NCBI RefSeq assembly: GCF_001465295.1
Contig: NZ_CP011034.1
Span: forward strand, 2,310,001 to 2,342,000
Length of the DNA stretch: 32,000 nucleotides
Reading direction: 5' to 3'
Source: Pseudoalteromonas translucida KMM 520
Lineage (GTDB): Bacteria; Pseudomonadota; Gammaproteobacteria; Enterobacterales; Alteromonadaceae
This document shows, piece after piece, positions 1 through 17,604 of this stretch. Both the position numbers and the translations under genes were made by a program. Positions within the stretch are counted from its first letter, which is position 1, and each line of letters begins with the position of its first letter. A model generated the notes under the pieces. It was not told the DNA's origin, did not search any database, and saw nothing but the letters and a program-made list of their open reading frames with translations.

Positions 1-65
1 TTCTAACGCTTAAAAGGTAATTCACCGAAATATGTTTTTTCAAATTGATAAATATGCTCTTAAAT

Positions 66-1250
66 TTATCCAATGTCATATTTTCGATCCTTTGGCTCAA
101 TTTCTTTAAGTCGCTCACTTATTTCGGTGTATTTATCTTTATATAATCTTTTTATAATTCCATTCATATAAACAACTAGGTTAAATCTTTTTTTGTACCA
201 GTATTTCTCCCTATAACTATCAGGGTAGGTTTCGAGCTTTTTAATTATAAAAAAACAATGTTTTATATCAACTGCCGATGGCAATGGCTGAATATCACTT
301 AAAGCGTTTTTAAAGTAGCCGTGTTTTGGATGCTTGACCCTTGCTAGCTTGTGAATGCGACCTAAACATCTATCAAAAGATCTGCGATAACTTCTGCTTT
401 TCCTAAAGTTATTTTCTTGAGCTTTCTTTGTTAATGCATGTACTTCTGCTCTGATTTTTGCAATCTCTTTAGCAGGTAAACGTGGCTGGTCAAACTCAAC
501 TCTAAGCCCGTGTACCATCAAGGGCTTTATCGAGCTATAAGACACCTCTTCTTTTTGCTCATTTATTGGCAAATCTTTTTGCAGAAGCATGTCTTCAATT
601 AATTTTTTTGCAGTGTTGAAATTAAAATTAGAAGCTGTACTAGAAACGGAGATATCATCAATGAACCTAGTATAAGTAAGTCCCTTACGTTCTAATCGTT
701 TAACCAGTAAGTGTTCTAAGTCAAAAAATATTAAGTTAGCTACATAGCTTGAGGTCAATGCGCCTTGAACCAATGTATTTTCAAAGCAACAAACATCACA
801 TATGAAATCGGCTACTTCATTTGAAAGATCTAAAGTATTAACCAAAATATCTTTTATATGCTCTTTATGAATATTATCGAAGAAATCTGATATATCCATT
901 TTTAAAAGGCTTTTTGCTCCACAATGCTTTTCAGCACATTTGATGTGGTCTCTGCTATCCTCAATTCCATTAATTAACTTTGGTATAGAACCGTATACAA
1001 ACTCAGGCCAAATTATTTTAGGCTTGAAAAAGCGGTTATTGATTCTTCTCTGAAATTTTCTGGTCAATTTATTAGGACATAAAACTCTTCTCTTAGAACC
1101 ATCACTTTTATATGCAGATTTAACAGGTTCACGATATCTAGAAGAGCTATTTGAGGATATAAAAGCTTCATAATCATCTTCTAAATCTAGAAAAGATATA
1201 AAGTTTTCAAGCTTTTTAATTGGGTCGCCTCGGTAATACTTAATTTCCAT
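66..1250 (-). CDS. Reverse transcriptase, retron-like or defence-associated (394 aa)
   Basis: RT motifs are visible in the ORF: KMDISDFFDNI (motif A Asp), LVQGALTSSYVANL (motif B), YTRFIDDISVS (catalytic xxDD) and LMVHGLRV. By eye these blocks parallel retron Ec86 RT as recalled from memory (NIDLEDFFPS, LPQGAPSSPKLANL, YTRYADDLT, VTGL). ATG at 1250-1248. A structured non-coding region lies immediately upstream. Confidence 0.8.
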   Translation of the reverse strand: MEIKYYRGDPIKKLENFISFLDLEDDYEAFISSNSSSRYREPVKSAYKSDGSKRRVLCPNKLTRKFQRRINNRFFKPKIIWPEFVYGSIPKLINGIEDSRDHIKCAEKHCGAKSLLKMDISDFFDNIHKEHIKDILVNTLDLSNEVADFICDVCCFENTLVQGALTSSYVANLIFFDLEHLLVKRLERKGLTYTRFIDDISVSSTASNFNFNTAKKLIEDMLLQKDLPINEQKEEVSYSSIKPLMVHGLRVEFDQPRLPAKEIAKIRAEVHALTKKAQENNFRKSRSYRRSFDRCLGRIHKLARVKHPKHGYFKNALSDIQPLPSAVDIKHCFFIIKKLETYPDSYREKYWYKKRFNLVVYMNGIIKRLYKDKYTEISERLKEIEPKDRKYDIG

Positions 1251-1267
1251 ATAATACCATTTTGGTT

Positions 1268-1481
1268 GGATGCCGTACCAAGCATGCGCTTTTATACCGT
1301 TTCTCTAGGCTAAAGGTTAACCATCACATTCTTTAAGTCAAATCTCAGCAACCACTGGTTAAACTTCGGTACGGCTGATCCATAGCTTGCTATTGCCTCC
1401 GCCAGCCGGAGGCGTGGTGGGGCCCTGAGCGTAGATGACATAGTCACCGTTATGTATGTAGCATACATAACACAGCTGAGA
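1268..1481 (-). ncRNA. Candidate RT-associated structured ncRNA (msr/msd-like); boundaries approximate
   Basis: No ORF in the track covers this 353-nt gap. It has a 10-bp stem with a 3-nt loop (1449-1471) and a GC-rich 7-bp hairpin (1395-1413). A long-range imperfect inverted repeat joins 1268-1282 and 1364-1381, with a perfect 8-bp core GCCGTACC/GGTACGGC. An inner 11-bp stem with one mismatch joins 1313-1323 and 1356-1366. A 7-bp inverted repeat joins 1343-1349 and 1475-1481. The GC-rich patch at 1395-1431 sits in an AT-rich context. Confidence 0.4.
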
Positions 1482-1572
1482 ATTTTTAATAACCTTAAAT
1501 GCAGTGAATAAGTGAATCACTTACGCAGATTACAATCTAATTGATAATCGACCATAATTCAACAAATTAAGA

Positions 1573-1592
1573 CAGCTTATTTATCTAAGCTG
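1573..1592 (-). terminator. Weak hairpin just after the tnsC stop (possible attenuator or terminator)
   Basis: CAGCTTA (1573-1579) pairs with TAAGCTG (1586-1592) around a 6-nt loop. On the minus strand it is followed by TCTTAATTTGTT. The stem is AT-rich, so the call is weak. Confidence 0.25.
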
Positions 1593-1603
1593 AATAAGTA
1601 AGG

Positions 1604-2605
1604 TTATTTCCTTAACAACTGACTAATCGGCATCCGGTCAGTAAACTTGGTCGCTATAAACGGGTCTTCATCTTGAGAGCTTTCAGGCTTATAAAGTGAA
1701 TAGCGCTCGACTTCGCTTGCTGTTATTTCTGCTACAGGCAAGGTAAATAAATTAGGAACATCCGGAAAGAGTACCTCAAATGCTTTAACTAAATGCTTGG
1801 TTGTGAGAGTTTTCGCGTTGTCCATTAATGCATAAAGTACGGCATCATCTAAAAAGTATTTTAATGTTCTAAAGCAACCTTTTGATAATGAGAACAAAGT
1901 AAACACTGTTGCTTGCTCACTTAAGTTTGGCTTTTCGGCAAATGGCATACGGTTGGCTAGACCAATTATTAGTTGTACAAAATGCTTTGGGTTTTCTGAC
2001 AACTTAAAATAAGGCAACTGCCGCCTTATTAATAAACGAGATGACCACTGGGGCTCGTCTGCTATTTTTTCTGCCCACGGCATACCTACCAATACAATTG
2101 ATACACCCGCTTCGTCGTTAATATATTTTAATCGATTAGCAATCTCGCGGCGCTTTTTACCTTGGTTGTGCTCAATTAGCTCTTGGAACTCATCAATAAT
2201 TATAAGCTCTGTGCCACATGTTTTTAGGCATTTTATTAATGATGTCGTTAAGCGAGTGCCGTTTATTCGTAGCTTACGCTCTGTGCTGCCTACTTGCCCT
2301 AAATCTTTAAGAAGCTCTGCTAAAGTAGATTCTAATGTCGGGTTACTAGGTATGCGGCTTACCAATACAGGGTGGTTCATAACACCATTAATAAATTGCG
2401 GTAAATGTCGTTCTTTATATTGCTTGATCAGTGCTGTTTTACCTGTGCCTGTATCGCCATTTAAGAGCATGCAAGGCTTTTCACCTGTTAGCCCTTTACC
2501 AAGTCTTAATCTATCGAAGTCGTTAAATATGGTGGTTATTATTGGGTATTCAATAAATACATCACGAAATTCATTCAGCTTTTCTTTTTGTTTATCGGTC
2601 AGCAT
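1604..2605 (-). CDS. tnsC: TnsC/TniB-like AAA+ transposition regulator (333 aa)
   Basis: Walker A is GDTGTGKT and Walker B is LIIIDEFQ. The start ATG lies 2 nt after the tnsB stop. The 333-aa length resembles the short TnsC of I-F3 CASTs rather than the 555-aa Tn7 TnsC. Confidence 0.85.
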   Translation of the reverse strand: MLTDKQKEKLNEFRDVFIEYPIITTIFNDFDRLRLGKGLTGEKPCMLLNGDTGTGKTALIKQYKERHLPQFINGVMNHPVLVSRIPSNPTLESTLAELLKDLGQVGSTERKLRINGTRLTTSLIKCLKTCGTELIIIDEFQELIEHNQGKKRREIANRLKYINDEAGVSIVLVGMPWAEKIADEPQWSSRLLIRRQLPYFKLSENPKHFVQLIIGLANRMPFAEKPNLSEQATVFTLFSLSKGCFRTLKYFLDDAVLYALMDNAKTLTTKHLVKAFEVLFPDVPNLFTLPVAEITASEVERYSLYKPESSQDEDPFIATKFTDRMPISQLLRK

Positions 2606-2607
2606 AA

Positions 2608-4431
2608 TTAAAATCCATCTAAGTCTGAGATAAAATCATCCCAGCTATCAGTTGGTTGCTCTTTAGGTGTAACCTTTTTGGCCTCTACGGGTTTGCTATG
2701 CGTTATTGACTTTTGTGAGTCACTACTGATATTTTGATGTTTAGCTAACGCTTTACCACCCTTTACTTTTGAGTGTTTTGGCGCATTTTTTAACTCTTCA
2801 AACTCGTTTTGAATTTTGTTATGAATAAACATGCGCGCTTTTGCTAAGCCTACATTATCGATAGAGCCCGAAATAAAGTCGCGGTGGATGCGTATATTTA
2901 TTTTATGCTGATTCAAACTTAAATTTTGGGTGTAACCGTTTGGATCTATGCATGGCACTTTTATGTAATGCTCTAGCTTATCAAGGTAAACATATATATA
3001 AGAAATATCATCGGGATTTAATTTAATTAAAACTTCTTGAGATACTTTATGGCTAAATTGCTTTCTATAATTGGCCAGTTCAGTACTGTCGTAGCTTAAG
3101 TTTTCTAGCCGTATCCCACCTTTACGAAGTACCCGATGATTTGAAATACTGAGCACAACATCTAGTTGTTGAAGATCAGCATCACTTAGCATTGTTGGTG
3201 GTAACGTATTAAAACCTTGATCCCACAGTTGACTCGGTATGTACTTAAAGCGACTGTCGGCATCTTGATGATAAACGTCTACTACCCATTTATGAAATAA
3301 CTGCATAAAGGTCGTAAAGCGCATGATTGCATCTTTTTTTGGATTGTATTCATGCTTTTGTAAAATGTTAGAAAAGGTTTTACCGGGAACAGGATCTAAT
3401 AACTCAGTATTTATTGTTCCAAACATACGTTCTACAAATGGTTTTAACCAAGGCTTTGCGACTGGGTTATATTGAGTATTAATGCCTATTTCTTCACAAG
3501 CAAGTTCAAGGCTGTTGCTCCAAAATTCAGCGCCATTATCAACAACGAGTGTTTCAATTTTGCCAGCACACTTCCACTCATTAATCGTATCAGGGTATAG
3601 TTTTGCCACTTCACTTTTAGGTTTCATCGCATTTAGCATTGCTCGCCTTACTGCATCATAGCTAGGCTCACTGAAGCTAAAGTAATAGCCAACAATACAA
3701 TGGCTATACACATCTACCAACATGGTGAGTGTAGGCCTACCTAGTGGAATATGTAGCTCATCATCTAATAAAATAAGATCAAGTGGCGTATGGTCAATTT
3801 CAACTTTTTCAAGTACTCGGATAGGCCGTTTATGCCCTTCAACCTTATTATAAGCAATATCAGCAAGGCGCTTACCATAACGAGCAATCATTACTTCGTA
3901 TTGCGGTAAGTTATCTATTCTGTTTTTAAACGCTTTGTATGTTAAAGGCTTTAAAACACTGTCAACAACACTGTCGTTTTCGATAATAACTAAGTCTTTA
4001 TAGAACTTGTAAGCCGAAGCCACTGATGGTTTTTCTTTTACTAAGTAACGCTCAAGTGCTTTTTCAAAAAACTTATCAGTGGTTGTATCGCGCTCCCTAT
4101 TACCCTTTTTTTGGTGGCTTGGTATTAGCGCCATAATATTTTTATCCGCATTGGTGTAAGCGCTATACCATCGTGCGGCTGTTCTCCAACTTGGCTTTTT
4201 TTCACCCTCAACATCAGGCATTAATTTTAATAAAGGTTCAAGATTTTTTTGTGTCCAACCACCTTGAATATTAGCCTCAAGCCATTGAATATATTTAAGC
4301 TTAGCAAATGTTGTTGTTTTTATTTTTTCAGGAAGGGCTTGTAAGTCTTTAGTGTAATTTTGAGGTAGTTTGGTTTCAGCTTTTGGTAATGGCTGGTTAA
4401 ACTCATCATCAAACAAATCGTTATTAAACAT
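2608..4431 (-). CDS. tnsB: TnsB DDE (rve-family) transposase (607 aa)
   Basis: Candidate DDE triad contexts are IDHTPLDL, VVDNGAEFW and KPFVERMF. It overlaps the tnsA stop by 8 nt. The order tnsA-tnsB-tnsC is canonical. Confidence 0.9.
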   Translation of the reverse strand: MFNNDLFDDEFNQPLPKAETKLPQNYTKDLQALPEKIKTTTFAKLKYIQWLEANIQGGWTQKNLEPLLKLMPDVEGEKKPSWRTAARWYSAYTNADKNIMALIPSHQKKGNRERDTTTDKFFEKALERYLVKEKPSVASAYKFYKDLVIIENDSVVDSVLKPLTYKAFKNRIDNLPQYEVMIARYGKRLADIAYNKVEGHKRPIRVLEKVEIDHTPLDLILLDDELHIPLGRPTLTMLVDVYSHCIVGYYFSFSEPSYDAVRRAMLNAMKPKSEVAKLYPDTINEWKCAGKIETLVVDNGAEFWSNSLELACEEIGINTQYNPVAKPWLKPFVERMFGTINTELLDPVPGKTFSNILQKHEYNPKKDAIMRFTTFMQLFHKWVVDVYHQDADSRFKYIPSQLWDQGFNTLPPTMLSDADLQQLDVVLSISNHRVLRKGGIRLENLSYDSTELANYRKQFSHKVSQEVLIKLNPDDISYIYVYLDKLEHYIKVPCIDPNGYTQNLSLNQHKINIRIHRDFISGSIDNVGLAKARMFIHNKIQNEFEELKNAPKHSKVKGGKALAKHQNISSDSQKSITHSKPVEAKKVTPKEQPTDSWDDFISDLDGF

Positions 4432-5074
4432 TGTTAGACCAAATTGCTGTTTCTATTGATATTTCATTTGTAGTTAAGTCGGCAAATAACTGCCCTAGTG
4501 ATAGTAAGCGAAGCACCGTAGCAAGTAGCTCACCGGCAGTTACTTTTAAATATCTGATTAACTGGCCCACTTTGATAGAGCCGTACTGCTTAACAAGTTC
4601 TAGTACCGATGCTTGCAATTCTGTTAAAGACTGAAAACCAGAGTAGCGATGCAAAAGCTTTAAGTTATTGAGTGTTGGGTATACACGGATTTGTTTATCA
4701 GTAACCAGTATTAAGTCGCGTCCATCTTGCTTAGCTATGGCTTGCTTTTCAATAAAACGTGCACGAAAGTCTTCGTCAGCAATTTTGCTTTGCGGTTTTA
4801 CTTCTATAAATTTTTGCGTGCCGTCTGTGTGGGTAAGTAAAAAGTCAGGTGTGTAACGGCAAATACGGTTATCGAACTCATATTCGTAACCTAGAGGTTG
4901 TGCTTCAAATGCGGCTATTGGTGGTGAAAATTCAAAATGGAAACACGCATCAAACTCTAAAGAGGATTCGACTAAACAAGTAGATTTATTTTTTTGACTA
5001 GCAAATTTATGAAGATTTTTTACACGGGAGTATTTTAGTTTTCTTCTGTACATGTGAGTCAACCATTTAACCAT
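4424..5074 (-). CDS. tnsA: TnsA endonuclease-like transposition protein (216 aa)
   Basis: Type II restriction-endonuclease-like TnsA motifs are present: ESSLEFDACFHFEF, YTPDFLL and IEVKP. It is the first gene inside the transposon end. An alternative ATG at 5053 is possible. Confidence 0.85.
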   Translation of the reverse strand: MVKWLTHMYRRKLKYSRVKNLHKFASQKNKSTCLVESSLEFDACFHFEFSPPIAAFEAQPLGYEYEFDNRICRYTPDFLLTHTDGTQKFIEVKPQSKIADEDFRARFIEKQAIAKQDGRDLILVTDKQIRVYPTLNNLKLLHRYSGFQSLTELQASVLELVKQYGSIKVGQLIRYLKVTAGELLATVLRLLSLGQLFADLTTNEISIETAIWSNNV

Positions 5075-5161
5075 TTGGTTAAATACTAGACTATGCCACC
5101 TTACACTTCCAATTTATGCCATCTTTTAGTACAGATATGTCAACTTATACTTCAAACAACA
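5041..5161 (-). repeat. Transposon right end: TGTTG terminus plus an array of candidate TnsB-binding repeats
   Basis: Read inward on the minus strand: TGTTGTTT GAAGTATAAGTTGACATATC TGTACTAAAAGATGGCATAAATTGGAAG TGTAAGGTGGCATAGTCTAGTA. The motif G(T/C)ATA(A/G) recurs three times. Two of these copies carry the longer ATAA(G/A)TTG, at 5141-5148 and 5110-5117; the third is GCATAG at 5092-5097. GTTGAC-N5-TGTAC occurs twice. The terminus resembles the Tn6677 end TGTTGATACAACCATAAAATG as recalled from memory. Confidence 0.55.
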
Positions 5162-5180: not shown

Positions 5181-5291
5181 TGGCAGTCTTACCAGCCACA
5201 TCTCGGCACACACGTCACAAACTGTGGCTGCTCCCTTCCGGGCCTGACCAGGTTCGCCTGCTAGTGTTGCGAGAGGACCAATAAGACTACC
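5178..5291 (-). ncRNA. ffs: 4.5S RNA / signal recognition particle RNA
   Basis: The minus-strand sequence is GGTAGTCTTATTGGTCCTCTCGCAAC...CCTGGTCAGGCCCGGAAGGGAGCAGCC...GCTGGTAAGACTGCCACCC. It is collinear with E. coli 4.5S RNA, which has CCAGGTCAGGTCCGGAAGGAAGCAGCC and an ACCC tail. Length is 114 nt. The 5' and 3' ends pair as a 10-bp stem. Confidence 0.9.
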
Positions 5292-5421: not shown

Positions 5422-6291
5422 CTATTTGCTCTCTAACTGCGCTTTAATATTACGCAGTGCCGCTTTTACTTTTTTCATGTTCTCTGGGCCCATACGTAAA
5501 AGCTGTTTTTGTGCAGCGGGTAATTGCTCCCACTCTGCAAATGCATATTGGTAGGTTACTGAGTCGCGCAGCAAAGGTAAGTTACCTTCTGGCTCTGGTG
5601 TATCGAGTAATAAGTCGATTGCATTTTCAAGCGTTTGCGTAAACTCATCATCGCCGTAACCAATTTCAGTATAGGCATTATTAATAAGCGGTTTATATTC
5701 TTCAAATAAACGCACTGCTTGGGCGGCGCTCATACTAGTAAATATTTTCACATACGGGGTGTATCGTTCATAACTATTAGGATCAATAGTTAAAATATCA
5801 CCTTCTGTGACACTAAATTTTTCTTCTGGCTTTATTACTGGTGTATGTTTTGTAGCAACTTTGCCCTTTGCTAAATTATCAACAAACACCACACCACGGC
5901 GAATAACATCATCGGTAATCATTAGCTCCATTACCGAATCACTTAAGTATTCATCCATTTTTGCCACAACAACTGCATCACTTTCATCAAGTGGTGGTAA
6001 TTGCACGGCTGCTGGTTCTGCATCACGTTGCGCTGGCATTTCATAATCTTGAGGTTTATCTGGCAATACTGATGGTACATCTAAAGCGGGATCATTTTCT
6101 GGCTTTAGCTCCATCATAGGCTGCTCTACTGGTGCTGGCTCAACCTCAGTAAGCACTTCTGCCTCGTTGCTTGGCTTAAGCAATACAAATGCAGCGGCGC
6201 ATACGAGTACCACTAAAATAATAATGGCAAAAAGTAGATTGTTATTAGGTGGACGTTTTTGAACATCTGACGCTGATGGTTTATCTGACAT
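5422..6291 (-). CDS. Membrane-anchored protein of unknown function (DUF3014-like)
   Basis: There is a single N-terminal TM segment (LLFAIIILVVLVCAAAFVLL), then an acidic Pro-rich linker and a globular C-terminal domain. The start is set at ATG 6291 because GGAG sits 5 nt upstream; the track ORF begins at 6324. The family name is from memory. Confidence 0.6.
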   Translation of the reverse strand: MSDKPSASDVQKRPPNNNLLFAIIILVVLVCAAAFVLLKPSNEAEVLTEVEPAPVEQPMMELKPENDPALDVPSVLPDKPQDYEMPAQRDAEPAAVQLPPLDESDAVVVAKMDEYLSDSVMELMITDDVIRRGVVFVDNLAKGKVATKHTPVIKPEEKFSVTEGDILTIDPNSYERYTPYVKIFTSMSAAQAVRLFEEYKPLINNAYTEIGYGDDEFTQTLENAIDLLLDTPEPEGNLPLLRDSVTYQYAFAEWEQLPAAQKQLLRMGPENMKKVKAALRNIKAQLESK

Positions 6292-6463
6292 ACGAACTCC
6301 ATTAAAATTAAAATGCAATATCACTTAGAGTATTCTAAATGAGTTTAATTCATAGCTTACAGTAAATAATATTAAAAGCAGCTAAGGTATCCTTTGATTC
6401 TTCTAGCTTAAAGACTTAAAGTAAATAAATAAAGTAAAGACGTAGAACAGTTTAGTCCCTTAT

Positions 6464-7609
6464 ATGAAAATCAAGCAAGTTGATCCTAACAAACCCAAAG
6501 TTGCCCTGCTATTAACAGGGGGTGGCGCACGCGCTGCTTATCAAGTAGGCGTACTTAAAGCATTAGCTCACAGCATGCCTAGAACAGCGCCTCTGCCATT
6601 TAGAGTAATAAATGGTACATCTGCTGGGGCTATAAACTCTGCGGCGCTAGCTTGCTATGCCTCCTGCGCGCACTTAGCAGTGAGAAAACTCGAATCAGTA
6701 TGGAAGAACTTTTCTACATCTATGGTGTATAAAAGTGATTTTTTAAGTGTATTTGGTCATATTACTCGCAATATTTTAACCAGTTTTCAGTCAGAACATA
6801 TAAATCACCCGCCTGCGAGTTTATTAAACAATAGGCCACTGCGTAAATTATTAAACGAAATATTAGATTTACATCGCATTGAACGCAATTTACACCACAA
6901 TTACTTAGAAGCGCTTTCGATTACCGCCTCTAGTTATACTACTGGTGATTCGGTGGCGTTTTATCAATCTAATACACGCCTACCATGGCAACGCGCTAAA
7001 CGTGAGGGCCGCGCTACGCGTATTAATGTTGAGCATTTAATGGCATCGAGCGCCATTCCTATGGTGTTTCCTAGTGTAAATATTTATAACCATTACTTTG
7101 GTGATGGCTCTATACATCAGTTATCGCCTCTAAGCCCATCAATACATTTAGGCGCTGAAAAAATATTTATTATTGGTGTTGAGCAACCTAAAGAGTTACA
7201 CCCTGTGGGTTACTCAGCTCATTACCCTGGGCTGTCTTCGGTTGCAGGGCATTTACTCGACAGCGTGTTTACCGACACTATGCAATCTGACTTAGAACGG
7301 CTTGAGCGAATTAACCGCACCTTAGGCTTGCTGCCAGCTCGCGATAAACACCAAGAACTTAAGCGCATAGAAACCTGCGTGATCAATCCATCACAAAATT
7401 TTAATGCCATTGCTGCGCAGTACTACGACGATATGCCATGGGCAATTAAAGTGTTGCTTAGGATCATAGGGGTTAAAAAACATTCGCAATCGAGTTTAAC
7501 CAGCTACTTATTATTTGAAAAACGTTATACCCAACATTTAATACAAATTGGTTATGAGGATGGCATGAAAAAGCTGCCTGAAATACGTAAGTTTTTAGAG
7601 TTAGATTAG
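6464..7609 (+). CDS. Patatin-like phospholipase family protein (381 aa)
   Basis: It has the oxyanion loop LTGGGARAAYQVG, the nucleophile elbow GTSAGA (GxSxG) and the catalytic Asp motif GDGS. Confidence 0.85.
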   Translation: MKIKQVDPNKPKVALLLTGGGARAAYQVGVLKALAHSMPRTAPLPFRVINGTSAGAINSAALACYASCAHLAVRKLESVWKNFSTSMVYKSDFLSVFGHITRNILTSFQSEHINHPPASLLNNRPLRKLLNEILDLHRIERNLHHNYLEALSITASSYTTGDSVAFYQSNTRLPWQRAKREGRATRINVEHLMASSAIPMVFPSVNIYNHYFGDGSIHQLSPLSPSIHLGAEKIFIIGVEQPKELHPVGYSAHYPGLSSVAGHLLDSVFTDTMQSDLERLERINRTLGLLPARDKHQELKRIETCVINPSQNFNAIAAQYYDDMPWAIKVLLRIIGVKKHSQSSLTSYLLFEKRYTQHLIQIGYEDGMKKLPEIRKFLELD

Positions 7610-7614
7610 GGCGC

Positions 7615-7637
7615 TGATGCATGCTCGCCATGCATCA
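7615..7637. terminator. Hairpin between convergent genes
   Basis: TGATGCATG (7615-7623) pairs with CATGCATCA (7629-7637), a 9-bp stem with a 5-nt loop. There is no clear T-tract. Confidence 0.35.
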
Positions 7638-7647
7638 TCTAAGTAAC

Positions 7648-9621
7648 TTACTCAATACCATCAAATAAATAATGCTCTACTCGCTCTACGCGCCTTGGTT
7701 TGCCTTGCAGTATTAAAATATCGTTGGCTAGTAATATAGTGTGATCCGATGGATTGTCTATTTCATTGTTTTGTCGGCGCAGTGCTTTTATAGACACTTT
7801 TCGTTTTGCTAAATTAAGCGTCGCAATACTTTTATTAACCGCAAAAGCTTTATCGGGTAGCGCTATCGCATGCAAGTATTCAAGGCGTTCATGTGCGCCT
7901 TCGTCTACATCAAGGTACTCACCGGTAAAAAAACTCTGCAATAATTGATACCGGTTATGTCTTTCGGTACTAACACGGCGAATAATACGGCTCATTGGTA
8001 CCCCCGACATAGACAAAACATGCGAAACCAACATTAAGCTAGCTTCAAGGGTTTCTGGCACAACTTCGGTAACTCCCAGCTCTTTTAAACGCTCAAGCTG
8101 ACTGTCGTCTTTGGTTCTTATTAGTATTTTTACCTCTGGGGCAACTTGCTTGATTGCATCTATTACTATTTGCGTTTGCTCAAACTCGGTAAAGGTAATA
8201 ATAACTAAACGTGCTCGCTCTACTCCCGCACATTTTAAAATATCTTTTTGTTTAACATGGCCAAATAATATTGGCTCTCCAGCCGCTTTACCTTCTTGAA
8301 CTAAAATTGGATTACTTTCTATTGCTATATAATCAATGGCTTCTGGTTTTAAAAAACGTGCAACCGTTTGCCCCACCCGCGAAAAGCCACAAATAATGAC
8401 ATGATCACTATACAGTGTGCTGCTTTTAGGCTCACTTTCCCACGCTTGGCTTGCACGATCTAGCACGCCAATACGCTTTAAAATAAAAGGTGTTTTATCA
8501 ATTAAAAAAGGCGTAAGTGCCATAGAAAGCACCCCTAAAGCAATTAAAAATGATACTTGCTGATTAGTTAGTAACTGATGCTGAGCGCCTAGTGCTATGA
8601 GTACAAAGCCAAACTCCCCCATTTGCCATAGCATAAATGCGCATGCGAGCGCGTCTTGTTTTCGCTCCCCCATTAGCTGAGCACTGATTGCCATTACCGC
8701 TATTTTTAATACTAATAAGCCAACTAATGCGCCAATAATAAGTAAGCTATTATTAAGCACATACATTACATTGAGCTGCATGCCGACAGTGACAAAAAAC
8801 AACCCCATTAAAATATCTCTAAATGGCCTAATGTCGGCTTCAAGCTGATGTCGGTAATGGCTTTCTCCTAGCATCATGCCTGCTAAAAAAGCGCCCAGCG
8901 CCATAGATAAACCAAATGAGTAGGTGAGTAAGGCAGCAAATAAAGCCACCAGCAAAGTGGTAAGCATAAATAGCTCGTCGGTACGTACCAGCGCAATTTC
9001 ATTGAATACTTTAGGCAAAATCCATTTACCTATAGCCCAAAGTAGTAAACAAACAAACGCCCCTTTCGTGAGCGCAACCGCTAACGCCCAACTAATACTT
9101 TGCGACCCGGTAGCGGCTAATAAAGGTAAAATAATCAGTAAAGGCACAACCGCAATGTCTTGAAATAAAAGCACCCCAATGGCGAGCTGCCCACGGCGTT
9201 TATTTAACTCCCCGTTTTCTTTTAATAGCTTAACAACCACAGCAGTTGAGGACAGCATCATAATAACGCCAATTGTAAAACTGGTGAGCAAACTAAAGTT
9301 TAAGCAATATAAAATCACAATAAGCACTGTGCTGGTTACTACAACCTGCAATGATCCTAAGCCAAATACTATATTGCGCATTGCCATTAGACGCGAAATA
9401 GAAAACTCGAGCCCCAAACTAAATAATAAAAATACTATACCTAGTTCAGCTACTAAATCCATTTCGTGGGTTTGCGTCATCCAACCAACACTGTGACTAC
9501 CCGCTAAAACCCCTGTTGCTAAATAGGCCAATATAGGAGGCAGCCCTACGCGCTTAAAAATCCATACAAATAAGACAGCAGCGACTAATAAAGTAAAAAT
9601 TTGAGTATTAATATTTTGCAA
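7648..9621 (-). CDS. CPA2-family cation/proton antiporter with C-terminal RCK (TrkA-N/TrkA-C) domains, KefB/YbaL-like (657 aa)
   Basis: The first roughly 390 aa contain about 12-13 hydrophobic helices. This is followed by a Rossmann-like VIICGFSRVGQ segment and a TrkA-C-like tail. The TTG start at 9621 is preceded by GAGG with a 6-nt spacer. Confidence 0.8.
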   Translation of the reverse strand: MQNINTQIFTLLVAAVLFVWIFKRVGLPPILAYLATGVLAGSHSVGWMTQTHEMDLVAELGIVFLLFSLGLEFSISRLMAMRNIVFGLGSLQVVVTSTVLIVILYCLNFSLLTSFTIGVIMMLSSTAVVVKLLKENGELNKRRGQLAIGVLLFQDIAVVPLLIILPLLAATGSQSISWALAVALTKGAFVCLLLWAIGKWILPKVFNEIALVRTDELFMLTTLLVALFAALLTYSFGLSMALGAFLAGMMLGESHYRHQLEADIRPFRDILMGLFFVTVGMQLNVMYVLNNSLLIIGALVGLLVLKIAVMAISAQLMGERKQDALACAFMLWQMGEFGFVLIALGAQHQLLTNQQVSFLIALGVLSMALTPFLIDKTPFILKRIGVLDRASQAWESEPKSSTLYSDHVIICGFSRVGQTVARFLKPEAIDYIAIESNPILVQEGKAAGEPILFGHVKQKDILKCAGVERARLVIITFTEFEQTQIVIDAIKQVAPEVKILIRTKDDSQLERLKELGVTEVVPETLEASLMLVSHVLSMSGVPMSRIIRRVSTERHNRYQLLQSFFTGEYLDVDEGAHERLEYLHAIALPDKAFAVNKSIATLNLAKRKVSIKALRRQNNEIDNPSDHTILLANDILILQGKPRRVERVEHYLFDGIE

Positions 9622-9749
9622 ATATTACCTCGTTACTTATAAAAACGGCCATGCTTAACTATAGCAATCACCAATTTATCGGCCAGTTTTTAAATGTGGC
9701 ATAAAATTCGCTTAGTATTATGAGATCATATACTCGGGGGAATAATTGA

Positions 9750-10646
9750 ATGGAAAATGTGCATATATTGACACAACGTATTGCTGGACGCGGAGAGTTT
9801 TTGCCGTTTTCGGCTGAGCATTATCGTAAAAATGAACCGGCAGCAACGCAAGAGCTAGCTGCAAAATTACAAACCAGTTTAATACTCGAAGATATATTAG
9901 CTATTTATGCAAAATTTGCAAAACAACTGCTAAATTTTTCAGGTATACAGTTCAAGTCGGCGCTAGGTACAGTGCAAACGCCTGATTGCGATATTGATAC
10001 ACTTTATTATACTTTTGATTTAATTGTCGAAAATGATAATTTAGGGCAACTAATATACTTTAGTAAATACCCACTGAGTGTTGCCATAGAACAAAAACTA
10101 CAATATTTTCATAGTGCGCTGCTCTATCCTTTACGTAATGCGATAATGTATAACCGGGTATTAAAACTTGCCACAAAAGATGCATTAACGGGACTAAGCA
10201 ATAGAAGTCAATTTAATGACACCTTACTGCAAAAGCTTGAAAACTGCCGCCGTTACCAGCGCCCATTTAGTTTAATGTTGCTTGATTTAGACAGTTTTAA
10301 GCAAGTAAACGATAATTTTGGTCATAAAGTGGGTGACGATGTACTTAAAGAATTTGCCTTAGTACTTAATAGCTCTATTCGAGGCACTGACTCTGTATTT
10401 AGATTTGGTGGCGATGAATTTGCAATACTCATTGAAGATCCTGAGTTTACTACTAATAAAGTAATAGCTGAGCGCATTATGCAACGCGTTAAAAACTCAA
10501 AAATAATGGCGCAGTACTCAGTTACTACCAGTATTGGCTTTACTTTAGCGAGTAGCCAAGACACCGAAAACGATGTTTTTTCGCGAGCCGATAAAGGTTT
10601 ATATAAAGCCAAAGCAGCGGGACGAAATTGCGCCAAAGCATATTAA
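9750..10646 (+). CDS. Diguanylate cyclase (GGDEF domain) with an uncharacterised, possibly GAF-like, N-terminal sensor region
   Basis: The active site reads RFGGDEFAIL. An RxxD I-site (RGTD) lies 5 residues upstream. The conserved LTGLSNR motif marks the entry to the GGDEF domain. Confidence 0.85.
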   Translation: MENVHILTQRIAGRGEFLPFSAEHYRKNEPAATQELAAKLQTSLILEDILAIYAKFAKQLLNFSGIQFKSALGTVQTPDCDIDTLYYTFDLIVENDNLGQLIYFSKYPLSVAIEQKLQYFHSALLYPLRNAIMYNRVLKLATKDALTGLSNRSQFNDTLLQKLENCRRYQRPFSLMLLDLDSFKQVNDNFGHKVGDDVLKEFALVLNSSIRGTDSVFRFGGDEFAILIEDPEFTTNKVIAERIMQRVKNSKIMAQYSVTTSIGFTLASSQDTENDVFSRADKGLYKAKAAGRNCAKAY

Positions 10647-10672
10647 GTACAGCGGTTAATATTGTTGTAAAT

Positions 10673-10704
10673 AAAAAGCCTAGCTTCCCCCGCTAGGCTT
10701 TTTT
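10673..10704. terminator. Bidirectional rho-independent terminator
   Basis: AAAAAGCCTAGC-TTCCCCC-GCTAGGCTTTTT has an A-run and a T-run on either side. It can serve the GGDEF gene (+) and the tilS/small-ORF unit (-). Confidence 0.7.
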
Positions 10705-10735
10705 ATTGCTGCCTAAGTAGTTTTAATAAGTCTAC

Positions 10736-11086
10736 CTACTTAGGCAGCAACTTTGCCGATAAAAATTTATACATAACCAACGCAATGCAAAAACCAAAAA
10801 AGAAACCACTGAGTAAATTAAGCAATGCAGCAATGCTAGCAAGTGGCGTAAATAACACTAACAATAGCGGTACACTCACTCCTAAAATAAAAAACAGCCC
10901 ACCTTTACCTAACCAATAAGCCAGTAAAATACTAGCGCACACTATTCCACCCGCTATAGCGCAGCCCAATGTAACTATATCAAGCGTTAAAAAATAATTT
11001 GCAAGCACAGCAATAACCGCTGTAATTAGCATACCTTGTGGTGCTTTATTTACTAACGATAAGCCTACATGCGGCTCCTTACTCAT
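10736..11086 (-). CDS. Small hydrophobic membrane protein (116 aa, about 3-4 TM), function unknown
   Basis: The ORF is strongly hydrophobic. Its ATG overlaps the tilS stop as TAATG, which suggests translational coupling. Confidence 0.55.
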   Translation of the reverse strand: MSKEPHVGLSLVNKAPQGMLITAVIAVLANYFLTLDIVTLGCAIAGGIVCASILLAYWLGKGGLFFILGVSVPLLLVLFTPLASIAALLNLLSGFFFGFCIALVMYKFLSAKLLPK

Positions 11087-12393
11087 TATTTACACTCCCA
11101 AAAAATACCGTTTTCATCACTATGGTTAGCACTTATAAAATAACCTACCACTTGTACTAGTTCATCATTATAAAAAATTAACGGCACATTAGCACGCAGC
11201 CAAGGAGCAACTTTTGCGTCTTTAAACCAATGTTTGAGCGTATTACTTCCTGGTTTTTTTAAAGGTTTAATGCGCGCACTATTACAATTAAAACGCACGC
11301 TTACTTGCTCACCTGCAGTTGGTGCTCTAATTCCTGCGCCACTGTGTTTTTTTAGTAAGCGACCATCAGCAAGCTTTAGCTCACTGCGGGTAATTAGTGT
11401 GTTGTTTAATTTTTGCGTGCTTGGTACAACAAAATATAAATGCCCTTGATGGCGGCGTATTTGTCCATCACTAAGCTCAATAAGCATTTGTGCATCGGTT
11501 TTAGCTGCAATTGCCTGATTAATTATTTGCTCCAGCTGCTTTTGCGATGGTAATACATGAGTAAACAACTCTAGCCACGCACGTACTACATTGGCTGTTC
11601 TAATAGGAGTAAATTTGGCAATAGCACTTATATTTAACGCCTGCTGAGGATTAACGCATTGCGTTAAATCAATGTGAGTATATTCGTTGAGTAAAGCGTG
11701 TTGCTGCTGCAGTAAACTAATACTGCGAGCGGTACATTGCTCAAAACCATTAAAGCGCGCTGCTAATATTGGCACAACTTGCTGGCGTATAAAGTTACGC
11801 TCAAAACGCTCATCGGTATTAGAATCATCGGTCACATGGTTAAGCGCATATTGCGCTGCAAAGGCTTCTATATCACTGCGTTTTACCGATAATAGCGGCC
11901 TGAAACATAATCGGCCACTGCTTAAAGTGCGCTCGCGCTGCATTGCACCTAAACCTTTTAAACCCGAGCCACGTTTTAAGCGCAGTAAAAAGGTTTCTAT
12001 TTGGTCGTTTAAATGCTGCCCAAGTAAAATAATGCTGCCATGTGGGCTTAGCTCATCTAATGCTTGGTAACGAGCATCGCGCGCTTGCGCTTCAAGGCTC
12101 GTGCGTGACTGCTGCTCTATATTTACTTTAGCCATTTGAAATGGCACATTTAGCTCATTGCACAGGGTTTGACAAAAGCCCTGCCAGTCGTCGGCATACT
12201 GGCTCAAACCATGGTGTATATAAATAGCAGAAACTTGCAACGCAGGATCCTGCACTCGTAAAGCATGCATTAAATGCAGTAATACCACAGAATCAACGCC
12301 ACCAGATAGTGCCACAGTAAACACCCTGTGACCTTGCTCAATATATTGACCCAATGATTGTTTTACTTGTTGATAAATAAGCGATGTGTGCAT
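11086..12393 (-). CDS. tilS: tRNA(Ile)-lysidine synthetase
   Basis: It has the PP-loop SGGVDS. It sits after accA, in roughly the position it holds in E. coli. The start is moved to ATG 12393 (MHTSLIYQ...) because the longer track ORF runs through the accA terminator. Confidence 0.85.
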   Translation of the reverse strand: MHTSLIYQQVKQSLGQYIEQGHRVFTVALSGGVDSVVLLHLMHALRVQDPALQVSAIYIHHGLSQYADDWQGFCQTLCNELNVPFQMAKVNIEQQSRTSLEAQARDARYQALDELSPHGSIILLGQHLNDQIETFLLRLKRGSGLKGLGAMQRERTLSSGRLCFRPLLSVKRSDIEAFAAQYALNHVTDDSNTDERFERNFIRQQVVPILAARFNGFEQCTARSISLLQQQHALLNEYTHIDLTQCVNPQQALNISAIAKFTPIRTANVVRAWLELFTHVLPSQKQLEQIINQAIAAKTDAQMLIELSDGQIRRHQGHLYFVVPSTQKLNNTLITRSELKLADGRLLKKHSGAGIRAPTAGEQVSVRFNCNSARIKPLKKPGSNTLKHWFKDAKVAPWLRANVPLIFYNDELVQVVGYFISANHSDENGIFWECK

Positions 12394-12475
12394 TAATTTA
12401 ACCTGAGATCCTGATAATTTAGCCAATAATTTTAAAATACTAAGTTTTAGGTACTTGATTTTAGCCATTTTAAAA

Positions 12476-12501
12476 CAAAAAAACCGCATAAGCGGCTTTT
12501 T
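12476..12501 (-). terminator. Rho-independent terminator after accA
   Basis: The minus strand reads AAAAGCCGC-TTAT-GCGGTTTTTTTGTTTT. Confidence 0.6.
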
Positions 12502-12531
12502 AAAATATTTATTGCTAATTATTAAAATAAT

Positions 12532-13491
12532 TTAAGAGCAATAACCAAACGACATTAAGCGTTTGTAGCGCTGATCAAGCATCTCTTCAAGCGAAAGTGC
12601 TTGTAGGTCGGCTAAGTCACGCTTTAATCGCACTTTTAAATTACGTGCCATAGCATCATAATTACGGTGCGCGCCACCTAATGGCTCGTCTACTAAGTTG
12701 TTAATTAGGTCTAACTCTTTAACTCGCTTAGCAGTTACGCCCATAGCTTCAGCAGCAAGTGGGGCTTTATCGGCGCTTTTCCATAAAATAGACGCACACC
12801 CTTCAGGAGAAATTACTGAGTAAGTACTGTATTGCAACATGTTAACACGATCGCCAACACCAATTGCTAACGCACCACCCGATCCACCTTCACCAATAAC
12901 CGTACAAATAGTTGGCACTTTTAAAGAAGCCATTACTTTAAGGTTACGGGCGATAGCTTCTGACTGGCCACGCTCTTCAGCACCCACACCAGGATAAGCT
13001 CCAGGGGTGTCGATAAAGGTCATAATTGGCATTTTAAAACGCTCAGCCATTTCCATTAAGCGTAATGCTTTACGGTATCCTTCAGGCTTTGGCATACCAA
13101 AGTTACGTTTAATTTTTTCAGCGGTACCACGGCCTTTTTGTTGGCCAATAACCATTACTGGTTCGCCATCTAAACGCGCTATACCACCTAAAATTGCCGG
13201 ATCATTAGCAAAAGTACGATCACCTGCAAACTCGTCAAACTCCGTAAAAATACGCTCGATATAATCTCGAGTATAAGGACGCAACGGATGACGTGCCAGC
13301 TGTGATACTTGCCAAGCGCCAAGTTCAGAGAATATTTTCTCTTTTAATCGGTCGCTTTTCTCTTTTAGCTTGCTGACTTCCTCTTCTAATTCAAGGTCTA
13401 ATTCGCCAGCGCGGCTTACATTTTGTAATTCTTCAATTTTCACTTCTAATTCTGCAATCGGAAGCTCAAAATCAAGATAATTGAGGCTCAT
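12532..13491 (-). CDS. accA: Acetyl-CoA carboxylase carboxyltransferase alpha subunit
   Basis: It is 319 aa with the N-terminus [16 protein letters not shown] and conserved [10 protein letters not shown]. It shows close end-to-end resemblance to E. coli AccA. Confidence 0.95.
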
Positions 13492-13507
13492 GCTCTAAAC
13501 TACCTAA

Positions 13508-16500
13508 TTAGTTAAATTCTAGTTCTACATCTTGCGCTGCCATTAGCGATAACTTATGAATTAAGTCGTCACTTGGCGTAACACACCATTCGATCCCTAG
13601 GGTTAATTGCGCCAATGCATCTGGGCGTTGGTAATAAACCTTGATCGGACACGTTCCCATTTTATATGGTTCGAGTACTTTTTGTAATTTATCGAAGAAA
13701 CCTGCCTCGACTTGCACCATGTTCAGCGTCATTTTAATCGCTTTAATACGTTTTTCACGCGCTTGAGCAATGGTGTTTATTTCTCTGGCGGTCATTGTAA
13801 TACCACCAGAGAAGTTATCAAAGCTGACCTGTCCAGATATCACCAAAATATTATTAACTTGGAGCATATCTTGGTATTTTTCAAACTCATCTGAATATAA
13901 GCGTACATCAATGCGGGCGCTCTTGTCATCTAAAGTTATTAATGCCCACCTATTTCCTTTTTTATTAATTAGCACTCTGGCCGAAATTACAAGCCCTGCA
14001 GCTGTAGATATTACATCGCGATTAGTAGGCTGTAAATCGACCAATTTACCACTGGTATAATATTTTAGCTCGCGGCGATATTGATTTATTGGATGACCAG
14101 TTAAATAAAGACCAAGGGTTTCTTTTTCGCCATCGAGCCATTCGTTATCGGTGAGTCCTGTGGCTTTAATAAAGGCTTGCTCTACTTCATCAGGCTCAGT
14201 GGCTAATAAGCCAAATAAATCACTTTGCCCTAATAACTCTGCTTTATTGTGCTGATCGGCGGCGCGCATGGCACTTTTTAAGCTTGCCAATAACGTGGCG
14301 CGCCCTGATTGAGTTTTTTCAGGGCCTAGCTGGTCAAGTGCTCCCGAATAAATAAGTTTTTCGGTTACACGTTTATTTAAGCGTTTTAAATCAACTCGGG
14401 CACAAAAATCAAATAAATCTTTAAATGGTCCGCCCTTAGCGCGCGCTTCTAAAATTGCCTCTACAGGTGCTTCACCTACTCCTTTAATAGCACCAATACC
14501 GTAAACAATTTCGCCTTGCAGGTTTACAGTAAATTTGAACTCGCCAGCATTCACATCAGGCGGGAGCAAGGTGAGTTTCATGTTTTCACATTCATCCACC
14601 AAAATAACTATTTTGTCGGTATTATCCATATCGGCCGACATTACCGCAGCCATAAACTCTGCTGGATGATGGGTTTTCATCCACAGTGTTTGATACGACA
14701 CTAATGCATACGCAGCGGAGTGCGATTTATTAAAACCATAACCTGCGAACTTTTCTACCAGATCGAAGATTTTAATTGCTAGTTCGCCGTCAATGCCGTT
14801 ATTTCGCGCACCATCTTCAAATGTTGAACGCTGTTTTGCCATTTCTTCGGGCTTTTTCTTACCCATAGCTCGGCGCAGCATATCGGCGCCGCCTAGTGTA
14901 TAGCCTGCTAATACTTGGGCTATTTGCATTACTTGTTCTTGATACAAAATAATGCCGTAGGTTGGCTCTAAAATAGGTTTTAAGCTTTCGTGCTGATACT
15001 GCGCATCAGGGTATGAGATTTCTTCGCGGCCTAATTTTCGGTCGATAAAGTTATCTACCATGCCCGATTGCAGCGGACCAGGTCGAAACAAGGCTACCAA
15101 AGCAATCATATCTTCAAAACTGTCGGGCTTTAAGCGCCTTACTAAGTCTTTCATGCCCCGTGATTCTAGCTGAAATACCGCGGTCGTTTCGGCGCGCAGT
15201 AGTAACTCAATACTCTTTTTATCATCCAGCGGAATAGTATTAATATCTACTGGCTCTTTACCGGTACGCGCTAAGCGCTCGTTGGTCATGTCGAGCGCCC
15301 ACTGCAATATAGTCAGCGTTCGTAAGCCTAAAAAGTCAAACTTAACTAAACCGGCAGTTTCAACATCGTTTTTATCAAACTGGGTAACCGGAAATTTACC
15401 TTCGTCATCGCAATAAAGAGCAGCAAAGTCGGTAATTGTGGTGGGCGATATTACTACCCCACCCGCATGCTTACCGGCGTTACGTGTACACCCTTCGAGA
15501 ATGCGACACATGTCGATTAAATCTTTTACTTCATTGTCGCCATCGTAGGCTTCTTGCAAGCGTGGCTCTATATCAAACGCCTTGGCAAGTGTCATCCCGG
15601 GATCGCCTGGGATCATTTTTGAAATACGATCAACAAAACCGTACGGGTGACCTAATACCCGGCCAACATCGCGTATTACCGCTTTTGCCGCCATGGTTCC
15701 AAAGGTAATAATTTGCGATACCGCGTTACGCCCATACAAGGCCGATACATGATCAATCACCTCATCGCGCCTATCCATACAAAAATCGACGTCGAAATCG
15801 GGCATTGAAATACGTTCTGGGTTCAAAAACCGCTCAAACAGTAAGTCAAATTCCAGTGGATCAAGGTCGGTAATTTTAAGCGCGTAGGCTACCAGTGATC
15901 CCGCACCTGACCCTCGGCCAGGGCCAACTGGAATATTGTTATCTTTGCTCCACTGAATAAATTCCATTACGATTAAGAAATAACCTGGAAATCCCATTTC
16001 GTTAATTACACCAAGCTCTATATCTAGGCGCTCATCGTATTCAACGCGTTTTTCTTTACGCTCTTGCTCATCAGGAAATAAAAACTGCAATCGCTCTTCA
16101 AGACCGTCTTGTGACACTTTAACTAAAAAATCTTCAATTTTAAGTGAGCCGGTCGGATAATCTGGTAAAAAGTAAGTGCCAAGTTGCACCGTTACATTAC
16201 AGCGTTTGGCTATTTCTACGGTGTTTTGTAATGCCTCTGGAATGTCGCTAAATAACTCAGCCATTTGCTCTGGCGTTTTTAAGTATTGTTCTTCTGAAAA
16301 CCGTTTAGGGCGGCGTTTATCATCCAGTGTATAACCATCAAAAATAGCCACGCGAATTTCGTGTGCTTCAAAGTTTTCTGGCTTTAAAAATACCACTTCG
16401 TTAGTGGCCACAACGGGTAATTGCTCTTTAGCAGCAAGCTCAACCGCCATGTGCAAGTAATCTTCTTCAAGCGGTCGATTAGTTCGCACCAGCTCAAGGT

Positions 16501-16999
16501 AGTAGTTATCACTAAAATGCTGTTTATAAAAACTAACAACCGATTCAATAACACTCGGATTATTTTTTAATAACGCTTTACCTAAATCGCCGTCTTTTGC
16601 ACCAGAGAGTATTATTAATCCGGCTTTAAGTTCTATTAGCCAATCACGATCAATCACCGGGCGATGAAATACATGCCCGCGCTGATATGCTTTAGATATT
16701 AATAAAGTGAGGTTTTTATAACCTTGATTGTCTTTTGCTAAAATAGTAATGCGACTTGGTTCGTTTTCGAACTCAGGGCTGCGTAGCCAAAAGTCAGCAC
16801 CCACTATAGGTTTTATACCTGTGCTGTGGGCTGTTTCATAAAAACGCACTAAGCCACATAAGTTCATTTGGTCGGTAATAGCAATTGCCGGCATTTGTAG
16901 CTCTTGTGCTTTGGCTACAATTGGCTTGGTTTTGGCAAGGCCATCAACCATCGAAAAATCAGAGTGAACTCTTAAGTGAACAAAATCTGGAGCAGCCAT
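13508..16999 (-). CDS. dnaE: DNA polymerase III alpha subunit
   Basis: It is 1163 aa with a PHP-domain N-terminus ([15 protein letters not shown]) and polymerase core motifs. Its position rnhB-dnaE-accA is canonical. Confidence 0.95.
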
Positions 17000-17001
17000 A
17001 T

Positions 17002-17604
17002 TTACGCCTCACCCTTGGCTTGCGCTAATACACGTTGCACTGGTTTAAAGCTTTTACGATGTTCTTTTATTGCGCCATATTGCTCAAGCGCTGCAAAATG
17101 CGCTTTGGTTGGATAGCCTTTATGCCCAGCGAAACCATATTCTGGATGGCGTTTATCTAGCTCTACCATTTCGTTATCGCGCGCTACTTTAGCTAAAATT
17201 GAAGCGGCTGAAATTTCGGCTACTAAGCTGTCGCCTTTTACTATTGCTTGCGCCGCCATGGTTAACTTAGGTAGGCGGTTGCCATCTATAAATACAAATT
17301 CAGGTTGCGTGCTAAGCCCCTCTACTGCGCGAGTCATGGCAAGCATAGTGGCGTGCAGAATATTTAGCTCATCAATCTCTGTTGGGCTGCAGCGACCATA
17401 CGCGTAACACAATGCTTTTTCTTGAATTTCAATGGCAAGTGCTTGGCGTTTTTTATCCGTTAATTTTTTTGAATCTGTTAATCCTAAAATAGGCTTAGTG
17501 GGATCTAAAATTACGGCAGCAGTTACTACGTCGCCAACAAGGGGGCCACGCCCTACTTCGTCAACGCCGGCAATAAGGGCTACGTTTGGTCGTTCAATTT
17601 GCAT
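17002..17604 (-). CDS. rnhB: Ribonuclease HII
   Basis: It has the [10 protein letters not shown] motif, is 200 aa long and sits between lpxB and dnaE. Confidence 0.9.

Follow-up and report, generated by a model that had tools for sequence, protein, structure and literature searches.

Background

The closest described relative of the system considered here is the retron Ec48 (Retron-Eco6) of Escherichia coli, the namesake of the type IV (Ec48/Eco6) retron family. Its anti-phage defence needs a reverse transcriptase (RT) together with a non-coding RNA (ncRNA) as well as a two-transmembrane (2TM) effector, and it guards RecBCD, with the RecBCD inhibitors lambda Gam and T7 gp5.9 triggering the system and leading to abortive infection (bioRxiv 10.1101/2020.06.21.156273). 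Ec48 is also one of two validated retrons with a substituted asparagine in the NAxxH motif, and its VTG triplet shows a T to H replacement (Simon et al. 2019, PMC6868368). The Eco6 ncRNA and the sequenced start of its RT-DNA have been published in Supplement 3 of Khan et al. 2024. Here we analyse a stretch of 32,000 nucleotides from Pseudoalteromonas translucida KMM 520 (assembly GCF_001465295.1, contig NZ_CP011034.1, positions 2,310,001 to 2,342,000 of the forward strand), termed the window throughout, in which an RT gene preceded by a structured region lies directly downstream of the transposition gene tnsC. We present evidence that this RT very probably belongs to an Ec48-family (type IV) retron, an anti-phage cassette which is carried as cargo in a variable slot of a type I-F3b CRISPR-associated transposon (CAST) and which has no role in transposition.

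The gene ffs serves as the attachment site of type I-F3b CASTs, and the guides which direct them to it are atypical and tolerant of mismatches (PMC11406308). The cargo of Tn7-like elements has been surveyed, with 50 retron RTs counted among its defence systems (Benler et al. 2021, PMC8649781), and that of I-F3 CASTs is reported to include retrons, CBASS and restriction-modification systems (PMC12452197). The presence of retrons as cargo in such elements is already documented in general terms. An earlier reading of the window, made from its letters alone (henceforth the sequence-only reading), had pointed out that the RT and its ncRNA sit where the target selector is usually found, and had entertained several explanations, which are taken up below where the relevant evidence is presented.

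Results and discussion

A type IV retron reverse transcriptase downstream of tnsC

Window positions 1-1562 contain what would be a complete-looking retron, in which a promoter of its own and a structured ncRNA precede the RT and the beginning of an overlapping 2TM effector gene. The effector was recognized by comparison with two further loci, a Logan contig (L001) and a genomic region of Pseudoalteromonas sp. A601 (L002). The features of the cassette and of the gap that separates it from tnsC are as follows:

1-79, minus strand: first 26 codons of the retron effector (Ec48-family 2TM membrane protein), with ATG at 79-77 and the gene running off the left edge (L001/L002 comparison)
66-1250, minus strand: retron RT of type IV (Ec48/Eco6 family), 394 aa, FIDD intact (Pfam RVT_1, PADLOC RT_IV)
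1251-1603: gap between tnsC and the RT, 353 nt, with no gene between
1268-1526, minus strand: retron ncRNA (msr-msd with a conserved 3' extension) of about 259 nt, bounded by an invariant G (1526) and a closing helix's 3' strand (covariation, alignment to Eco6)
1534-1562, minus strand: putative sigma-70-like promoter, TTGAAT at 1557-1562, a spacer of 17 nt and TAGATT at 1534-1539 (position conserved in the family)
1563-1592, minus strand: terminator-like hairpin (1573-1592) with its T-run, directly after the tnsC stop codon

As the sequence-only reading had observed, the RT is co-oriented with tnsA, tnsB and tnsC. Its product matches the Pfam RVT_1 model (E 1.4e-20), and the profile classification which that reading had proposed as a check assigns it to retron type IV: PADLOC RT_IV is matched with E 2.2e-137 and 456.3 bits over profile positions 6-385 of 386, the runner-up is RT_V at 193 bits, and type VI and all the other retron classes fall far behind RT_IV. 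Membership in this clade is further indicated by 43% identity to the E. coli Ec48 RT (E 2e-102), which likewise has 394 residues.

The motifs which had been singled out as odd for a retron, namely FIDD (residues 196-199), VHG (246-248) and CAEKH (105-109), are indeed present, and they correspond to LVDD, VHG and CAKAH in the Ec48 RT. The window protein thus displays the Ec48 version of the region X and Y signatures, with the asparagine of NAxxH substituted and VHG in place of VTG, together with the catalytic xxDD. Across an alignment of 30 family members C105, H109, D198-D199 and H247-G248 are invariant, and the two residues preceding the DD pair are L or F followed by V or I. Since VHG, CAxxH and F/L-I/V-DD are either published traits of Ec48 or shared throughout the family, these supposed departures are the signature of the Ec48 family and not peculiarities of one gene.

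Two remarks on composition were likewise correct in part. The last 100 residues of the RT are rich in lysine (16% vs 9.9%) and tyrosine (9% vs 3.4%), but not in arginine (7% vs 7.1%). The gene is more AT-rich than its surroundings, but only moderately and not strongly so, with a GC content of 32.7% as against 36.6-38.8% in the tns genes and approximately 40.7% in the flanking chromosome.

An Ec48-family effector gene overlapping the RT

The absence of any gene between tnsC and the RT, and the mere 65 nt that remain between the RT stop codon (66-68) and the window edge, both correctly described in the sequence-only reading, would favour a stand-alone defence RT of the DRT/UG or Abi class which acts with its ncRNA and has no separate effector. 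The ORF beginning at position 79, which escaped that reading, points in a different direction. Its overlap with the end of the RT gene, stop codon included, amounts to 14 nt, and its first 79 nt in the window are 100% identical to the corresponding positions in L001 and L002. L001 encodes the exact RT protein of the window, followed by an ORF of at least 161 aa with two hydrophobic segments, and this 161-aa partial product matches PADLOC 2TM_IV (E 3.3e-25). L002, a near-identical locus found by a genome scan, provides the full effector of 258 aa, which is matched by the NCBIfam model NF038235 retron_Ec48_2TM ('retron Ec48 family effector membrane protein') at 250.8 bits, the cut-off being 65.

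This gene arrangement is typical of the family: the effector lies directly downstream of the RT in 47 of 50 other type IV loci (L003-L052; RTs 32-47% identical), and the closest relatives of the window RT (52-66% identity) also carry it, annotated as PF28197 Retron_Ec48_antiviral. In addition, models of DRT and group II intron RTs score far under their cut-offs against the window RT (Drt3a 37.6 of 200, Drt2 34.6 of 390, group II 37.5 of 300). With a 2TM protein of the Ec48 family encoded next to it, we regard a self-sufficient RT and ncRNA pair as exceedingly improbable. The alternative offered alongside it, a defence cargo retron with its effector downstream and beyond the window, is borne out, most of the effector gene indeed lying outside.

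A covarying ncRNA with a proposed pseudoknot

The gap between tnsC and the RT was correctly measured at 353 nt and correctly described as structured in the sequence-only reading, its folding being more stable than that of shuffled sequences (z -2.54). The description ORF-free applies only loosely: at 1310-1520 (minus strand), inside the ncRNA region, a mechanical ORF call yields two overlapping frames (52 and 53 aa), and there is no sign that they are genes, no protein search having been made on them. Conservation extends over approximately 260 nt of the gap in eight relatives (RT identity 45-66%), and comparison of these sequences yields the following elements, all on the minus strand:

1508-1524: 5' hairpin
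1494-1506 with 1325-1337: pseudoknot, in which the 5' strand (CAC..UUUAAG), immediately 3' of the first hairpin, pairs with the loop of the long hairpin (covariation)
1449-1471 and 1434-1448: two variable hairpins
1395-1413: GC-rich hairpin
1368-1381 and 1268-1279: the two strands of the closing helix
1312-1367: long hairpin
1296-1310: small hairpin
1368-1421: predicted msd (template), including the hairpin at 1395-1413 and the closing-helix 5' strand at 1368-1381 (alignment to the Eco6 ncRNA and RT-DNA start)

The support from covariation is strong. Across the eight relatives the 57 proposed pairs are 96.5% paired, as against 34-43% when the partners are slid; compensatory changes on both sides are seen in 32 of them; and none of 500 shuffles reached the observed covariation score. 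Pairing is 100% in the two pseudoknot helices (alignment columns 59-64/243-248 and 52-54/253-255), and in the main helix double-sided changes occur at five of its six pairs. Beyond these relatives, direct alignment with MAFFT and RNAalifold recovered a matching architecture in 33 distant type IV loci; the pseudoknot duplex occurs in the same register in most of them, and in 16 of the 33 at p<=0.05 against shuffles. The E. coli Ec48 locus (L211 3021-3262), which we retrieved from E. coli ATCC 43896 with the published Eco6 ncRNA as query, likewise allows both the pseudoknot and the closing helix to be traced.

No Rfam retron family matched the window ncRNA, the msr family RF00170 included; a covariance model of the 3' domain, built from the eight close relatives, produced only weak matches in the distant type IV loci. 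A scan of metagenome DNA for a conserved 18-mer of the ncRNA (TGGATCAGCCGYAYCGAA) gave chance matches only, with none of the 120 returned stretches (L084-L203) encoding the RT.

The window ncRNA can be aligned to that of Retron-Eco6. According to this alignment the template starts within the closing helix, on its 5' strand, and the msd lies over the GC-rich hairpin, so that an msDNA (multicopy single-stranded DNA) of about 50 nt is predicted from the template at 1368-1421. The alignment also makes the invariant G1526 the best candidate for the branching G. The published Eco6 ncRNA stops approximately 95 nt before the RT start. It contains neither the small hairpin nor the closing-helix 3' strand, and it lacks the greater part of the long hairpin. 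The predicted msDNA of the window opens with 14 nt that are nearly identical to this 3' strand (1268-1279). We tentatively raise the possibility, in our estimate rather less than an even chance, that the ncRNA of type IV retrons, that of Ec48 included, is a pseudoknotted fold of about 260 nt which reaches some 95 nt past the published Eco6 3' end. The pairing of the template start to a downstream strand could, along with the pseudoknot, be a built-in switch that gates the priming or the termination of reverse transcription, and the extended fold may be a stand-in for the canonical a1/a2 duplex. When a covarying canonical a1/a2 pair was looked for in the ncRNA alignment none was found; it is the closing helix and the pseudoknot that covary instead.

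Three other placements of these elements were considered and set aside. Equating the closing helix itself (1368-1381/1268-1279) with a1/a2, the msd then lying on the 3' side of the long hairpin, is contradicted by the template placement in the Eco6 ncRNA and RT-DNA. An outer a1/a2 pair, with one strand ahead of the first hairpin and the other past the closing helix, shows a 10/11 match in A. fischeri which does not recur in the other loci compared, and the A. fischeri candidate overlaps the conserved -10-like element. A circularly permuted retron (a2-loop-a1, followed by a conserved UAGC) is incompatible with the Eco6 RT-DNA start.

The putative promoter conforms to a pattern, TTGnnn-N17-TAnnnT, which is conserved across the family alignment and in the Ec48 locus (L211 2987-3015), though in the window it falls under the threshold of a simple promoter scan. 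Nucleotide homology between the window and a retron locus in P. rubra begins at 1529. In Ec48 a possible second promoter further upstream would permit an a1 of about 13 nt.

The host element and its target selector

The features to the right of the cassette define one end of a transposon and its attachment site:

1604-2605, minus strand: tnsC, TniB-family AAA+ ATPase, 333 aa (Pfam TniB, E 1.8e-27)
2608-4431, minus strand: tnsB, DDE transposase, 607 aa (Pfam Mu-transpos_C and rve)
4424-5074, minus strand: tnsA, 216 aa (Pfam Tn7_TnsA-like_N, NCBIfam TnsA-like)
5092-5161, minus strand: right end of the CAST, probably ending at about 5161 (TGTTG...), with three spaced AAGnTGRCATA repeats (5092, 5115 and 5136)
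5187-5283, minus strand: ffs, the signal recognition particle (SRP) RNA gene and attachment site (Rfam RF00169, 73.5 bits)
5214-5245: ffs protospacer, about 52 bp from the probable transposon end

The three repeats (5092-5146) are interpreted as putative TnsB-binding sites, and window homology with the element-free chromosome of P. rubra ends at 5171. RNA and tRNA scans covered window positions 9622-32000.

What lies beyond the retron was read in L002: first a gene of the Xre family (99 aa), then the Pycsar genes PycTM and PycC (the latter with 521 bits), tniQ, cas8/5 (Csy2), cas7 (Csy3), cas6 (Csy4) and a CRISPR array at 19334-19540, which has three typical I-F repeats and a final atypical one (TTTTAACTGCCGAAAAGGCAGAGGGTAA). 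The spacer in front of this final repeat, the last of the array, agrees with ffs in 24 of its 32 positions. Given the location of the window element next to ffs, this ffs-matching atypical guide, and the known attachment of I-F3b elements at ffs, the element is an ffs-homing I-F3b CAST, with tnsA, tnsB and tnsC at its right end, and its insertion point is about 52 bp downstream of the protospacer. In L002 the array is closely followed by an antitoxin-like gene of the Xre/MbcA/ParS type (19574-20065, minus strand).

The slot occupied by the retron is the interval between tnsC and xre/tniQ. In L002 the selector (tniQ-cas8-cas7-cas6 and the array) lies approximately 3.2 kb past the RT. To judge from this, the element does not lack a target selector, and the retron would sit between the tnsABC and tniQ-cas modules. 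The suggestion that the RT and ncRNA sit at the usual place of the selector and may be tied to the transposon is not supported by this arrangement, nor by the nature of the interval as a variable defence slot, to which we now turn.

Possible exchange of defence cassettes in the tnsC-tniQ interval

Three more lineages of ffs-type CASTs (L207, L208 and L209/L210) were fetched by means of their TnsC homologues. The contents of the interval in these and in L002 are as follows:

L002, 9648-14286: type IV retron and Pycsar
L207 (TnsC 87% identical), 6159-14513: Tmn and a type I-B retron (ATPase-Toprim and RT_I-B)
L208 (TnsC 92%), 11162-17352: PDC-S73 and a type I-A retron (RT, PtuA-like ATPase and PtuB-like HNH)
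L209/L210 (TnsC 58%), L209 4300-13220: Old, a PifA-like KAP NTPase and unknown genes, with no RT

The L208 element occupies the same chromosomal site as that of the window, tniQ is also present in the sibling CASTs L207-L209, and a highly similar Xre gene (99-101 aa, 74-88% identity) is kept in all four lineages. Nucleotide homology of the window with L207 or L208 breaks at the tnsC stop codon (1605-1608). The cassette that begins just past the tnsC stop and takes in the ncRNA and RT was also compared among the window (66-1603), L001 (3649-5251) and L002 (9648-11250). It is 99.7-100% identical in these three elements, whereas their tnsA, tnsB and tnsC differ by 5-9%, with the step in identity at the tnsC stop; the adjacent host gene (DUF3014) is only 73% identical between the window and L002. 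The presence of a near-identical cassette on diverged backbones suggests that it was recently exchanged between CASTs in different hosts. The tnsC-tniQ interval of these I-F3b CASTs may behave as a cassette-exchange site.

These observations also bear on the notion that the retron is a decaying or inactive remnant, a passive passenger in the transposon. The AT-richness of the cassette relative to its surroundings and the partial visibility of the effector in the window could be cited in its favour. However, the RT ORF is of full length and retains all the family-invariant residues along with the DD catalytic pair, every ncRNA helix is intact, and the effector of L002 is likewise full length; moreover, the near-identity of the cassette on backbones that have diverged speaks for the recent spread of an intact unit. 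We accordingly consider degeneration of the retron very unlikely.

The same comparisons address a functional tie to the transposon, in which the RT and ncRNA would, for instance, act in place of the target selector or help it, or provide transposition with cDNA or RNA. The placement of the RT directly downstream of tnsC, co-oriented with tnsABC, is what such a tie would lead one to expect, as is the presence of retron RTs in the tnsC-tniQ interval of two sibling CASTs. Yet the sibling RTs are of other types (I-B and I-A), possess canonical effectors of their own and stand among unrelated defence genes, and the fourth lineage has no RT in the interval at all. L002 has tniQ-Cascade and an ffs-directed guide, and the retron is set off from tnsC by a terminator-like hairpin and a putative promoter of its own. 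In the linkage survey that the sequence-only reading had called for, tblastn with the element's own proteins (E<=1e-5) detected tnsA, tnsB, tnsC or tniQ within 10 kb in none of the 50 other type IV loci. The nearest relatives of the RT are found beside an IS630-type transposase, within a phage-like island that has an integrase, or beside housekeeping genes of glycine cleavage. Coupling of the RT and ncRNA to transposition is therefore largely refuted, and we attach hardly any probability to it. The sequence evidence supports the view that the retron is a self-contained defence cassette in a cargo hot spot, set up as a separate transcription unit. Since the retron is of a known, well-characterised type, has its canonical effector adjoining and belongs to a family that lacks linkage to tns genes, the novelty claimed for the locus in the sequence-only reading, which had itself named such a finding as fatal to the claim, fails.

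Two other type IV loci merit description. In P. rubra (L078 7321-11930) a type IV retron whose RT is 65% identical to that of the window lies at the same site, downstream of DUF3014 and ffs, where it adjoins an IS630-type (DDE_3) transposase; tns genes are absent. An origin of this retron as a CAST remnant is unsupported, there being no Tn7-end repeats around L078. A hot spot for site-specific insertion and a decayed element are both conceivable. In the E. coli locus L211 a second gene annotated as 'RNA-directed DNA polymerase' (1179-2723, minus strand, 514 aa) runs on the strand opposite to the Ec48 ncRNA and is located upstream of it, at a distance of approximately 280 bp. The Ec48 retron and this gene lie between an annotated replication endonuclease and a phage portal gene, in what looks like a P2-like prophage.

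A proposed mode of action modelled on Ec48

By analogy with Ec48, the RT would reverse-transcribe part of the ncRNA, the predicted template at 1368-1421, into a short msDNA of about 50 nt, and the resulting RT-msDNA complex would hold the membrane effector inactive. Inhibition of RecBCD by a phage, through proteins resembling Gam or gp5.9, would then free the effector to damage the membrane, and the infected cell would die ahead of phage release in an abortive infection. Gam triggers type IV retrons, and for Eco6 Gam by itself suffices. We have moderate confidence that the window retron follows this guard logic. Throughout, the retron would simply ride on the transposon, taking no part in target selection or transposition.

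Several considerations weigh against this interpretation of the locus. The RT is only 43% identical to that of Ec48 and its trigger may differ; msDNA synthesis, the trigger and defence itself are all extrapolated from homology with Ec48, and in one study the Eco6 effector alone was not toxic (PMC8989520). The window holds 26 codons of the effector, its full extent being deduced from L001 and L002. Similarly, the tniQ-cas module was observed in the sibling element L002, which resides in a different host, as the divergence of the DUF3014 gene indicates. With respect to the ncRNA, we could not assign a1/a2 and the branching G unambiguously, and the conserved promoter predicts a transcript start at or near G1526, which would leave little room for a canonical a1.

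On the whole, the locus represents one more Ec48-family retron and one more case of CAST defence cargo, both documented phenomena. It provides a well-bounded example of the way in which ffs-homing I-F3b CASTs accommodate defence cassettes right behind tnsC and apparently trade them across diverged elements. The extended pseudoknotted fold, if true, would bear on priming and on termination of reverse transcription in type IV retrons, as well as on where the boundaries of the ncRNA should be placed when such retrons are engineered.

Comparison with known systems

The window retron resembles Retron-Eco6 (Ec48) in the order of its components, with the ncRNA followed by the RT and an overlapping or adjacent 2TM effector; in an RT of 394 aa with VHG, CAxxH and xxDD; in an effector that falls in the same NCBIfam equivalog; and in the landmarks of the ncRNA, which align, the pseudoknot and closing helix being readable in both. 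It differs in that the two RTs are 43% identical and the ncRNAs alignable mainly through structure, and in a predicted msDNA of about 50 nt as against the 45-48 nt of Ec48. The genomic settings also differ, Ec48 lying in a P2-like prophage region and the window retron in a CAST.

With the I-F3b CASTs that home to ffs, such as Tn6900 (AsCAST), the element shares a right end with tnsA-tnsB-tnsC and insertion approximately 50 bp downstream of the protospacer; its sibling L002 further shares with them an Xre-family gene, the tniQ-cas8/5-cas7-cas6 module and a short array whose last guide lies by an atypical repeat and matches ffs imperfectly. A point of difference may be the tnsC-tniQ interval, which is full of defence cassettes in the four lineages surveyed. 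Finally, in relation to the defence cargo of Tn7-like elements catalogued by Benler et al. (2021), which already lists retron RTs, the present analysis adds that the slot begins exactly at the tnsC stop codon and that an identical cassette occurs across diverged backbones.

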